Below are positions 32,474-36,409 of a stretch of DNA of 64,000 bases, one piece after another. Origin of the DNA: Escherichia phage vB_EcoM_RZ; the sequence record MW598459. One strand, 5' to 3'. The notes under the pieces were generated by a model. It had not been told where the DNA came from and made no database searches. It worked only from the letters and a program-made list of their open reading frames with translations. Made by a program: the position numbers and the translations under genes. Each line of letters begins with the position of its first letter. The stretch's first letter is position 1.

Positions 32474-33046
32474 TCAGCTTGTTAATTCGAGCCAATGTTT
32501 CCTGCATAAAGATACGTACGATTCATTCCCACCGACTAACACTTGCTCGCCGTCCTTTACAGCAGCACCGTCGATTACTCGCGCGGTCATGGTTGCTTTC
32601 CGGCCGCAATGACAGACGCCCTTTAATTCAACCAGTTTATCCGAAATAGCCAGAAGTCTGGCTGAACCGGGAAATAATTGACCCCGAAAATCTGTTCTTA
32701 ACCCGTAACACATAACGGGGATATTGTAATTATCAACCACTTGAGCTAACTGGTCAATTTGCTCTGGTAACAAAAATTGAGCTTCATCGACCAGGACACA
32801 ATGGATATCCTTTTGAGACTCGGCCCATTTATAGAATTCAAACAGGTTCATGTCGGCCGTTACCAGGTTTGCTTCCTGGCTAATACCAATACGTGATTTG
32901 ATTTCAGATTCCGAGTCCCGATTATCAATAACAGGTTTTAGCAAAAGCACACTCATTCCACGCTCTTTATAGGAATAAGCTGCAGTCAGCAATGAAGCTG
33001 TTTTGCCTGCATTCATTGCTGCGTAATGATAAATTAAACTCGCCAT
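32474..33046 (-). CDS. tk: Thymidine kinase (190 aa)
   Basis: Track ORF; P-loop AAMNAGKTASLL, VDEAQF, C-terminal zinc ribbon CHCG...C; T4 tk-like. Confidence 0.9.
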   Translation of the reverse strand: MASLIYHYAAMNAGKTASLLTAAYSYKERGMSVLLLKPVIDNRDSESEIKSRIGISQEANLVTADMNLFEFYKWAESQKDIHCVLVDEAQFLLPEQIDQLAQVVDNYNIPVMCYGLRTDFRGQLFPGSARLLAISDKLVELKGVCHCGRKATMTARVIDGAAVKDGEQVLVGGNESYVSLCRKHWLELTS

Positions 33047-33055
33047 ATCACCTTC

Positions 33056-33241
33056 TTAAAGCGTATTCACATAAGCTATTAATTCGTTTTCTTTCGCATC
33101 AAATCGATTAGCAAATTCTTCCTGATGTTCGGCATCTATCGGACCATATTCATCATAAAAGGCGTTTGCTTCCGTATGCTCATCCAAAAGCTCATGGATA
33201 AGCTCAAATAATCTACTTTTCTGACTAATGCTTAAACTCAT
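33056..33241 (-). CDS. Hypothetical acidic protein (61 aa)
   Basis: Track ORF. Confidence 0.4.
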   Translation of the reverse strand: MSLSISQKSRLFELIHELLDEHTEANAFYDEYGPIDAEHQEEFANRFDAKENELIAYVNTL

Positions 33242-33444
33242 TTCGGTTCACCATATCGCACAAATTTAGGATGTTCGCAATAACCAGAATGAAAACCTTC
33301 ACCCTTATGATTAGAACATCCTTTATTAGAACAGTACCACCAGTAATCATATTCGCAATTCATTTCATCATTGCATAAAGCTGCGATTACTGGCCATTCA
33401 CATTTTTCACATTTGGCCGTTTTAAGAATTCGGGCTTGGCTCAT
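33238..33444 (-). CDS. Hypothetical Cys-rich protein (68 aa)
   Basis: Track ORF; multiple CxxC/CxxxC pairs. Confidence 0.4.
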   Translation of the reverse strand: MSQARILKTAKCEKCEWPVIAALCNDEMNCEYDYWWYCSNKGCSNHKGEGFHSGYCEHPKFVRYGEPK

Positions 33445-33895
33445 AATCCACCACTATTAAATCAATATCAGGAGTAAACATGTCGATTAATTTAGAAACC
33501 TTATCCCAATCGCCGCCAGCAATACCACAACCAATACGAGGAATATAAATTACCGGTTTAAACAAAAGGGTTTCTGCCTGTAGATTTAATTCTATCATAC
33601 AATTTACTAAAGCGCCATAATCAAGATTAGGGCCCGGTTCATATTGGGTGTACAAATTATAGCACATACCAAACCCAGTAGGTTTATGTTTAAAAACAAT
33701 AGACATATCGCCGAGTTTTTCTCTGGAACCATATTCAGTAGTGGTTTTATCTATTTCTAAAACTTTTGGATAGGCCTTCGCCAACTGTCCAGCTACGCCA
33801 GAACCCATTGTGTGAAAGCAGTTGCAACCATGTGCAATAATATTGCCTTGAAGAAAGAGGGCGACGATATCGCCCTTAATATACTGGGTAATCAT
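33422..33895 (-). CDS. Macro-domain-like protein (157 aa), putative ADP-ribose binding/hydrolysing
   Basis: Track ORF; GDIVALFLQGNIIAHGCNCFHTMGSGVAGQL resembles the macro-domain N-terminal ADP-ribose binding motif; motif-level only. Confidence 0.5.
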   Translation of the reverse strand: MITQYIKGDIVALFLQGNIIAHGCNCFHTMGSGVAGQLAKAYPKVLEIDKTTTEYGSREKLGDMSIVFKHKPTGFGMCYNLYTQYEPGPNLDYGALVNCMIELNLQAETLLFKPVIYIPRIGCGIAGGDWDKVSKLIDMFTPDIDLIVVDYEPSPNS

Positions 33896-34251
33896 TTAGA
33901 GTTCAACCCTCTATTATATGAATCCACTAACCTGTCAACCATACTGGTGCAGGCCGCCTTATATTTTGCACTTGAAAGAATGCAATCCATTTCAAATAAT
34001 TTCTTTTCATATTTGTTGGATAATACATTCTTTTTCAAAAGTGTATGTTCAACATCATTTTGGCCATCTTTATATGCCGCGGTGAGCTTGGCGCTGAACT
34101 GGATTACACAATCCACATTGCTTGGTGCGCAATAATCTTTAGCCGTCCTCGTTGCATATTCTATGATGCTGTTGTTGTCATCGCTCTGTACTGAAGCTAT
34201 TCCTCCCATGCTGAATACTAACCCTATGGCTAAAGTGATAACTCTTACCAT
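33892..34251 (-). CDS. Secreted hypothetical protein (119 aa, signal peptide)
   Basis: Track ORF; hydrophobic N-terminus with cleavage-like site ASVQS. Confidence 0.45.
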   Translation of the reverse strand: MVRVITLAIGLVFSMGGIASVQSDDNNSIIEYATRTAKDYCAPSNVDCVIQFSAKLTAAYKDGQNDVEHTLLKKNVLSNKYEKKLFEMDCILSSAKYKAACTSMVDRLVDSYNRGLNSK

Positions 34252-34806: not shown

Positions 34807-35265
34807 TTAGATATAAATCACTTTTGTGCTAATTTTTCCTTCCAGACGATTAGAGTTAACAAACGCCATACGACAACACATGGTCGGAGACTTCCCAGGA
34901 ATAGCGGGGTTAACTGTCATTCCTAACCACAGGTTCTTGTCCGTGATTTCCAGACGAAGTGGACGGTAGTTCACATTCGGGTCAATTTGTGCTTCAACTT
35001 CCGGGAGTGGTTTCATCTCCAAGAATTCAACGATTTCTTTTACATGTGGTGTGATTTTTCCAAACAAGTCAAAAACATATTGTTCATCAATTTCACGTTG
35101 GATTGCACGGTCCAACAGGTGTGGACTGTACTTAATGAAGAATGCCTCAAGGCCTGCTTCTTTACAAGCCTTGTTGATAGCATTATTAATTTTGAGGAAC
35201 TCCGTTTCAAAAATGCGACGAAGTTTATTGCGGCGAATGTAAACACTTGAATCGATAGTAGTCAT
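34807..35265 (-). CDS. regB: RegB site-specific endoribonuclease (152 aa)
   Basis: Track ORF 34807..35322; ATG at 35265 downstream of early promoter gives MTTIDSSVYIRRNKLRR..., matching T4 RegB from memory. Confidence 0.85.
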   Translation of the reverse strand: MTTIDSSVYIRRNKLRRIFETEFLKINNAINKACKEAGLEAFFIKYSPHLLDRAIQREIDEQYVFDLFGKITPHVKEIVEFLEMKPLPEVEAQIDPNVNYRPLRLEITDKNLWLGMTVNPAIPGKSPTMCCRMAFVNSNRLEGKISTKVIYI

Positions 35266-35292
35266 GATTATCTCCTTTTGTTTGATGGGATA

Positions 35293-35321
35293 ATCATAAC
35301 TCATTTCAATCTGCTTGTACA

Positions 35322-35322
<1 letters not shown>
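35293..35322 (-). promoter_or_regulatory. Early promoter (-35 GTGTAC, 18 bp, -10 TATGAT)
   Basis: Read on minus strand upstream of regB; leader TATCCCATCAAACAAAAGGAGATAATC. Confidence 0.55.
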
Positions 35323-36120: not shown

Positions 36121-36409
36121 ATTTTTTCCAATCAGAAATCATATGAATCTCTTGGTCATAAGTCAAGAGACTACGAGTAATAATACCCTTACAAGGCCCA
36201 GAGATGAACTCGAGAGTAAAGTAAGGAACCTGTTTCATTAATCGGATACTTGGAGCATGACATCTAAAACGAGAGCCCTTAAAGGGCCCCGACATGAATA
36301 CATATTCTAATGGATAGAAATAAGCATATTCAAAATTTGTAGTAAGGTCCTCTCTTCGGACCTTACGTGAGAAATAGCAGAACTCAAAAAGTTCTTCATC
36401 AGTCATCAT
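36113..36409 (-). CDS. Hypothetical protein (98 aa)
   Basis: Track ORF. Confidence 0.4.
   Translation of the reverse strand: MMTDEELFEFCYFSRKVRREDLTTNFEYAYFYPLEYVFMSGPFKGSRFRCHAPSIRLMKQVPYFTLEFISGPCKGIITRSLLTYDQEIHMISDWKKYV

Follow-up and report, generated by a model that had tools for sequence, protein, structure and literature searches.

The ORF at 33422-33895 on the minus strand of the 64,000-nucleotide stretch of Escherichia phage vB_EcoM_RZ analyzed here (MW598459; the window) raises the question of what a small protein encoded between thymidine kinase and RegB contributes to the phage. The first-pass annotation had placed this ORF in a tk-regB setting and read it as a macrodomain-like protein, and the setting is as described, with an ATG-initiated ORF of 157 codons and tk and RegB on either side on the minus strand. 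The gene is an already annotated ortholog of T4 tk.4/adfM, and gene, domain and role are already known; the residual interest lies in its Gln-type chemistry and in the apparent independent origin of two phage proteins that share the name AdfM. The genes and sites around the ORF are:

32474-33046, minus strand: thymidine kinase, by a very strong Pfam match.
33238..33444, minus strand: ORF for a small zinc-binding protein at the tk.3 position, downstream of tk.4 (Pfam Phage_zn_bind, 1.4e-29, full length).
33422..33895, minus strand: coding sequence of the tk.4/adfM ortholog, an ATG-initiated ORF of 157 codons for a single-domain macrodomain protein (157 aa, 17.3 kDa, pI 5.05).
33892..33895, minus strand: ATGA overlap of the vs stop codon (TGA) and the tk.4 ATG, read directly from the sequence.
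33892..34251, minus strand: vs (valyl-tRNA synthetase modifier), directly upstream of tk.4 in the same operon (PHROG 1256, 8.5e-33; 45% identity to T4 Vs).
33907..33911, minus strand: GAGGG, 11 nt upstream of the tk.4 ATG, read directly from the sequence; a putative Shine-Dalgarno-like element.
34807-35322, minus strand: RegB, by a very strong Pfam match.

The start codon of tk.4 is credible because the alignments with T4 Tk.4 and BT1257 start from the first residue and because of the ATGA overlap and the upstream GAGGG, both of which recur in T4 (the same 4-nt vs/tk.4 overlap, and GAGGA at the position of GAGGG). The overlap suggests translational coupling of vs and tk.4. At its 3' end tk.4 is overlapped for 23 nt by the start of the zinc-binding ORF at the tk.3 position, which BLASTP did not match to T4 tk.3 at an E threshold of 1e-3; the record of the nearly identical phage P8 carries a shorter annotated ORF at this position. 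T4 tk.1 had no counterpart in the neighbourhood. The regB ORF as called opens with GTG and encodes 171 aa, the Pfam RegB profile begins at its residue 23 and T4 RegB is 153 aa long; translation probably begins at an internal ATG (MTTIDSS…) about 19 codons downstream of the GTG.

A scan for sigma-70 promoters and terminators around tk.4 returned both at the level of shuffled sequence (12 vs 12.2 and 3 vs 2.9, respectively), and no promoter or terminator is claimed. Motifs resembling the MotA box of middle promoters (TGCTT, 12-16 nt, TAnnnT) numbered 33 in the whole window against 17 expected, a count that none of 100 shuffles reached, and 24 of the 33 lay on the minus strand, which is consistent with T4-type middle transcription of the leftward gene block. 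The one nearest to tk.4 is at 36304-36326 (minus); none was found between regB and tk.4, and the promoter of tk.4 itself was not located. A G+C-rich hairpin (AGGGCGAT-ATC-GTCGCCCT; 33858-33876, minus), flagged as terminator-like, spans tk.4 codons 7-13, 20 nt past the start codon, and the same hairpin recurs in T4 tk.4, with a 9-bp stem and identical codons for K-G-D-I-V-A-L. It may reflect mere conservation of these codons, terminator-like sites in the region being at chance level.

The encoded protein is a macrodomain of the ALC1/TARG1-like class, which also holds BT1257, SCO6735, Poa1p and DarG. Residues 22-136 matched positions 2-117 of the 118 positions of Pfam Macro (PF01661) with 34.2 bits against a gathering cut-off of 22 (E 2.8e-8), and the protein ends about five residues past the domain. 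AlphaFold2 gave an unusable model from the single sequence (pLDDT 36.5), and the run used instead was based on an alignment of 72 sequences from which the T4 row had been left out; it reached pLDDT 95.2 and pTM 0.90 and showed the three-layer alpha/beta/alpha macro fold, so that fold prediction bears out the macrodomain call of the first-pass annotation with high confidence. The top Foldseek match of the model was TARG1 (E 1.6e-9, TM 0.73-0.82). Searched against the PDB, the family profile retrieved 15 sequences at E <= 0.001, all of the ALC1/TARG1-like class, with BT1257, TARG1, SCO6735 and Poa1p ranked above both DarG structures. The nearest relatives in sequence and structure are thus members of this class and stand clearly apart from the MacroD, PARG and macroH2A types, and the families first proposed for comparison, MacroD/YmdB and PARG-like proteins, proved not to be the closest. 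Assignment as a MacroD/YmdB O-acetyl-ADP-ribose deacetylase was rejected (12.9 bits on the corresponding NCBIfam model, cut-off 291), as was PARG-like membership, the relatives being ALC1/TARG1-like.

T4 Tk.4 is the sole T4 protein of the region matched by the ORF, with 58% identity over 153 aa, no gaps and E 3e-70. The two proteins are nearly equal in length (157 aa here, 155 aa in T4) and share the slot between the tk.3 position and vs, N25, Q84 and the residues of the Gly-rich loop, while they differ at 42% of residues and in pI (5.05 here, 5.91 in T4). The surrounding genes are collinear with T4 in the order rI.-1, rI, tk, tk.2, tk.4, vs, vs.1, regB, vs.3, vs.4 and vs.5. Identity of the region was 99.4% with Yersinia phage vB_YenM_P8 and 92-98% with many T4-like phages of Escherichia and Shigella, SP18 and VR20 among them; the gene is annotated as tk.4 in SP18 and as 'phosphatase', 'macro domain-containing protein' or 'Poa1p-like' in other records, and Escherichia virus TH54 encodes an identical protein. 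In the vB_YenM_P8 record (PP693301.1) many product names look misassigned, with six 'thioredoxin' genes and names of structural proteins in the early-gene region and vs labelled 'valyl-tRNA synthetase', which makes its annotations unfit for propagation.

Homologs were found by tblastn in 2,759 of 50,697 phage records, spanning Straboviridae, Vequintavirinae, Ounavirinae, Ackermannviridae, Pakpunavirus and actinophages. Together with at least 503 bacterial loci and active-site residues conserved throughout, this conservation rules out a spurious ORF; that the frame is a product of chance or a decayed, inactive macrodomain can be regarded as practically negligible, and the confident structure model and the synteny with a T4 gene of known phenotype argue against it as well. 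Some homologs carry C-terminal extensions of 45-110 residues past the macrodomain, namely those of Mordin (L006:1495-2289, 264 aa), Vi01 (L007:1501-2106, 201 aa) and Acinetobacter phage 133, where the gene is tk.4 (BFVD Q6J2P1, 245 aa).

Three conserved segments account for the active-site comparison:

33791..33832, minus strand: first ADP-ribose-binding loop, codons H22-A35 (HGCNCFHTMGSGVA), with N25 and the G31-x-G33 motif; aligned to SCO6735, BT1257 and TARG1.
33644..33658, minus strand: family signature N80-L-Y-T-Q84, with Q84 at the site of the catalytic Lys84 of TARG1 and Lys80 of DarG, equivalent to Gln85 of SCO6735.
33506..33541, minus strand: Gly-rich phosphate-binding loop, codons P119-W130 (PRIGCGIAGGDW; P119-RIGCGIAGGD-W130); aligned to TARG1 and SCO6735.

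The N-terminal stretch that had first been singled out as resembling an ADP-ribose binding loop corresponds to residues 8-38, and the loop it contains is conserved in homologs: H22, G23, N25 and C26 were kept in 119 of 121 (the other two being gapped), G33 and A35 in all 121. N25 is the counterpart of SCO6735 Asn27, DarG Asn22 and PhiKZ AdfM Asn23, and mutation of the equivalent Asn abolished or reduced activity in SCO6735 (PMC9411070) and in PhiKZ AdfM (PMC13309987). The N-x-Y-T-Q motif (N80, Y82 and Q84) was invariant in 121/121 homologs down to about 40% identity. In profile and multiple alignments Q84 falls in line with TARG1 K84, itself equivalent to DarG Lys80 (PMC9411070), as well as with the Gln that BT1257 and SCO6735 have there; a Gln occupies this position also in the distant phage homologs of rV5-like phages, Mooglevirus, Vi01, Pakpunavirus and Streptomyces phages. 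The Gly-rich loop, whose absence from alignments would have counted against a macrodomain, is conserved likewise, as P119, G122, G124 and W130 were kept in all homologs not gapped at these positions (118-119 of 121) and A126, G127 and G128 occurred in at least 89%. A126 stands in the column of TARG1 Asp125, and G127/G128 correspond to SCO6735 Gly128. In SCO6735 the Q85A and Asn27 mutants are dead and G128E is impaired (PMC9411070).

Similar in active-site make-up are SCO6735 of Streptomyces coelicolor (PDB 5E3B) and BT1257 of Bacteroides (2FG1/2AFC), Gln-type ALC1-like macrodomains with 25-28% identity to the phage protein, with which it shares Gln in place of the catalytic Lys as well as the equivalents of Asn27 and Gly128 (here Q84, N25 and G127/G128). 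It differs from them in the segment from Q84 to Y93, which has 10 residues as in TARG1 and not the 15-16 of SCO6735 and BT1257, and in the absence of Lys34, Lys89 and Lys93 of SCO6735, with Ser32 in place of Lys34 and no Lys in the Q84-to-Y93 segment. The longer mobile loop with Lys89 and Lys93 was called characteristic of the SCO6735/BT1257 subclass by the authors of the SCO6735 study (PMC9411070). Human TARG1/OARD1 belongs to the same macrodomain class and has a similar loop length, but its Lys84/Asp125 dyad is replaced by Gln84/Ala126 here. Yeast Poa1p, also of this class, shares an H-x-C-N-C motif (Poa1p His23) with the phage protein and resembles it in both sequence and structure; Poa1p is a known Appr1p phosphatase, and for the phage protein the relationship is one of similarity only.

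The macrodomain of the DarG2 antitoxin (structures 5M31/5M3E from T. aquaticus, 5M3I from M. tuberculosis and 7OMU of Thermosipho DarTG) differs from the phage protein in several respects: in the latter the catalytic Lys80 is replaced by Gln84, there is no C-terminal DarT-binding domain, and the neighbours are vs and the zinc-binding protein and not darT. Identity as a DarG2 antitoxin proper was rejected on profile scores, since NCBIfam NF048014 gave 31.4 bits against a cut-off of 250 over positions 3-149 of 338 only, and the PADLOC DarG profile gave 31.8 bits over positions 4-146 of 329 only. On the PADLOC and NCBIfam DarG profiles T4 Tk.4 scored 36.0 and 30.3 bits and PhiKZ gp104 132.9 and 137.8 bits, respectively; all three proteins matched the macrodomain half only. 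PhiKZ gp104, also named AdfM (Cell Rep 2026, PMC13309987), is like the protein studied here a stand-alone phage macrodomain, with the active-site Asn and a similar size (162 aa); it counters DarTG2 and removes DarT2-made ADP-ribose from thymidine in vitro (PMC13309987). It belongs to a different lineage, however, with the DarG-type Lys motif FPTKDNW where the present protein has LYTQYEP, and the match between the two was marginal (BLASTP E 0.001; hhalign 96.5% probability, 23% identity). The PhiKZ Lys lies one or two columns off Q84 in the hhalign and MAFFT alignments, within a stretch of low confidence, and its equivalence to the Gln was taken from motif position. Membership in the PhiKZ-type AdfM group, marked by Asn23/Lys78 and strong similarity to DarG, was likewise rejected: the Asn is present, the Lys motif is replaced, and the score of about 32 bits compares with 133-138.

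Reversal of host ADP-ribosylation defences, which the first-pass annotation had offered as a possible role, fits what has been reported for the T4 ortholog, whereas no support emerged for its other suggestion, the processing of NAD-derived immune signals. When a T4 transposon library was grown on a DarTG2-expressing host, tk.4 was the single significant hit, and a clean tk.4 knockout was sensitised to DarTG2, upon which the gene was renamed adfM for anti-DarT factor Macrodomain (bioRxiv 10.1101/2025.11.20.689424, a preprint of November 2025). Among the conditions reported, which included one DarTG2 system, tk.4 was conditionally essential with DarTG2 only; removal of ADP-ribose from DNA by T4 AdfM was inferred by the authors of the preprint, to whom hydrolysis 'seems likely' (bioRxiv 10.1101/2025.11.20.689424). 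T4 lacking adfA and adfN had earlier been found to remain DarTG2-resistant (PMC11825919), and tk.4/adfM fills the gap that this finding predicted. Our literature search retrieved no biochemical study of any Tk.4-type protein, a search on T4 tk.4 returning comparative-genomics papers only. SCO6735 efficiently removes thymidine-linked ADP-ribose, for which its authors propose a water-mediated route that does without the Lys (PMC9411070).

On this evidence we consider it likely that the ortholog of T4 tk.4 (adfM) described here, a stand-alone ALC1/TARG1-like macrodomain, is an anti-DarTG2 counter-defence enzyme, with the DarTG2 phenotype and the hydrolysis being what we infer for this particular protein. 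In the mechanism that we propose, host DarT2 would place ADP-ribose on thymidines of single-stranded phage DNA and so block replication; the macrodomain protein, expressed along with vs and regB in the early/middle leftward transcription unit, would bind the ADP-ribose through its two conserved loops and hydrolyse the ribose-thymine bond, which would free ADP-ribose and restore the DNA. The chemistry would probably follow the Gln-dependent route of SCO6735, with Asn25 positioning Gln84 and Gln84 orienting substrate and water, instead of relying on a Lys as in DarG and TARG1. The textbook mechanism is ruled out by the invariant Gln that stands where DarG and TARG1 have their catalytic Lys. DarTG systems stop phages via ADP-ribosylation of DNA, and the countermeasures of the T4 family are layered, comprising AdfA, AdfN and now AdfM; the presence of an AdfM ortholog leads to a prediction of DarTG2 resistance for this phage, which is relevant for host-range prediction.

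Several observations weigh against a DarTG2-directed enzyme. The T4 evidence comes from a preprint and one DarTG2 system, and the protein is only 58% identical to T4 Tk.4. It has neither the catalytic Lys of DarG and TARG1 nor the Asp of TARG1, it lacks the features with which SCO6735 is thought to hold single-stranded DNA (Lys34, here Ser32, and the longer mobile loop that carries Lys89 and Lys93), and it is acidic (pI 5.05). The same acidity is what a DNA mimic might have, and DarT2 could conceivably be neutralised mainly by binding, through interaction and inhibition as by an antitoxin mimic, and not by hydrolysis of ADP-ribosyl-DNA. In vitro the dead mutants SCO6735 Q85A, DarG K80A and TARG1 K84A retain inhibition of DarT, with the strongest effect for SCO6735 (PMC9411070), and the other phage anti-DarT factors AdfA and AdfB bind the toxin. 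We nevertheless judge this improbable, as the protein is a bare macrodomain that lacks the DarT-binding domain found at the C-terminus of DarG (matches to the DarG profiles are confined to positions 3-149 of 329-338) and as its invariant residues line the ADP-ribose pocket (N25, G33, Q84, G122 and G124), the pattern expected under selection for catalysis.

The likeness to Poa1p gives rise to another account, in which the protein acts on small molecules, as a Poa1p-like ADP-ribose-1''-phosphate phosphatase or an O-acetyl-ADP-ribose deacetylase that clears NAD-derived metabolites, and any effect on DarTG2 is secondary. Weak in vitro Appr1p phosphatase activity is common among macrodomains and is not taken to be their function in the cell. 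In T4 and other phage records the old label 'A1pp phosphatase' is carried over from annotation and goes back to similarity to Poa1p, not to an assay. Since the only T4 tk.4 phenotype that we found is DarTG2-specific (bioRxiv 10.1101/2025.11.20.689424) and the deacetylase model scored far below its cut-off (12.9 bits vs 291), a metabolite-clearing enzyme seems a quite unlikely description of this protein.

Relatives of the anti-DarTG2 enzyme proposed here are widespread outside phages. A scan of bacterial and archaeal genomes returned at least 503 loci with 32-43% identity in many phyla, and the Gln at the Q84 position was present in 76 of the 79 bacterial relatives examined. When Pfam families were tallied for 89 neighbours on the same strand and no more than 200 nt away, with the 25 most frequent families listed, the partners were heterogeneous (rpoC, class-I aminoacyl-tRNA synthetase, semialdehyde dehydrogenase and transporters) and included three NADAR-macrodomain pairs and two NAPRTase/NAMPT neighbours. 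DarT was not among these 25 families, so that at most two of the 89 neighbours could be DarT, which counts against a DarTG2-directed role insofar as it shows no general tie between this family and DarT.

These settings, in which the gene follows rpoC or one for a class-I aminoacyl-tRNA synthetase and DarT is missing, have a housekeeping character that would also suit a protein whose main substrates are ADP-ribosylated proteins or RNA, whether marks left by phage transferases of the Alt/ModA/ModB type or those of other ADP-ribosylating host defences, with DNA as one target. T4-family phages encode ADP-ribosyltransferases, and the T4 Alt and Mod enzymes modify arginine; ALC1/TARG1-like macrodomains are not known to cleave the arginine linkage. 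The close relatives SCO6735 and TARG1 do hydrolyse protein-linked ADP-ribose (PMC9411070), but no phenotype or assay supports protein or RNA as the main substrate, and, of the conditions reported for the T4 screen, DarTG2 alone made tk.4 conditionally essential. We regard this as unlikely in its strict form; a role on proteins or RNA is compatible with one on DNA, and the two could coexist.

The proposed counter-defence enzyme differs in its kin from the PhiKZ protein, as set out above, and the bacterial loci point to a stand-alone eraser family, and not to DarG, as the source from which phages recruited the Tk.4 type. We tentatively propose, as a scenario that is quite possible if somewhat short of probable, that phages acquired anti-DarT2 macrodomains at least twice: the PhiKZ type as a truncated DarG with the catalytic Lys (about 135 bits), and the Tk.4 type from the widespread stand-alone bacterial N-x-Y-T-Q family. 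Members of that family are sometimes paired with NADAR, their commonest neighbours do not include DarT, and catalysis in the Tk.4 type would depend on the Gln, the catalytic Lys being absent. In that case the Tk.4 type would not be a stolen antitoxin but would erase ADP-ribose generally, from nucleic acids and possibly from proteins, with broader substrates than DarG. The two proteins both named 'AdfM' in T4 and PhiKZ belong to different lineages.

Some of the individual neighbourhoods deserve mention. A NADAR gene lies directly upstream of a Tk.4-like macrodomain gene in a Victivallales MAG (L015:3549-4468) and in two Ruegeria genomes (L031:3472-4447 and L032:3463-4459), with a 4 nt overlap in L015, a 20 nt overlap in L031 and a distance of 7 nt in L032; the NADAR calls were made by Pfam for L015 and L031 (1.5e-37 to 1.8e-37) and by BLAST clustering with both for L032. 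The arrangement suggests a contiguous version of T4's AdfN (NADAR) and AdfM (macro) and, with it, a module of two enzymes that would erase G- and T-linked ADP-ribose. Genes for nicotinamide/nicotinate phosphoribosyltransferase adjoin macrodomain homologs in the Pakpunavirus vB_Paer_PsCh, a Pseudomonas phage (L008:1-1980), and in two bacterial MAGs (L030:2453-4477 and L080:2628-4444), an adjacency that links the macrodomain family to NAD salvage in some genomes. In several Hyphomicrobiaceae (L013, L025 and L049) the gene immediately upstream of the macrodomain gene encodes a class-I aminoacyl-tRNA synthetase (Pfam tRNA-synt_1, 1.2e-126), and in T4-like phages tk.4 directly follows vs, the gene of the valyl-tRNA synthetase modifier; a functional link between tk.4 and vs, which this parallel brought to mind, was set aside, as it is a matter of adjacency alone and probably coincidence. 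In the Streptomyces phage Annadreamy (L004:2327-3471) the macrodomain gene gp152, of the SCO6735-like long-loop Gln type, begins at the stop codon of the Sir2-family gene gp151 and has rIIA/rIIB-like genes after it, an instance of a Sir2-macrodomain pairing in a phage.
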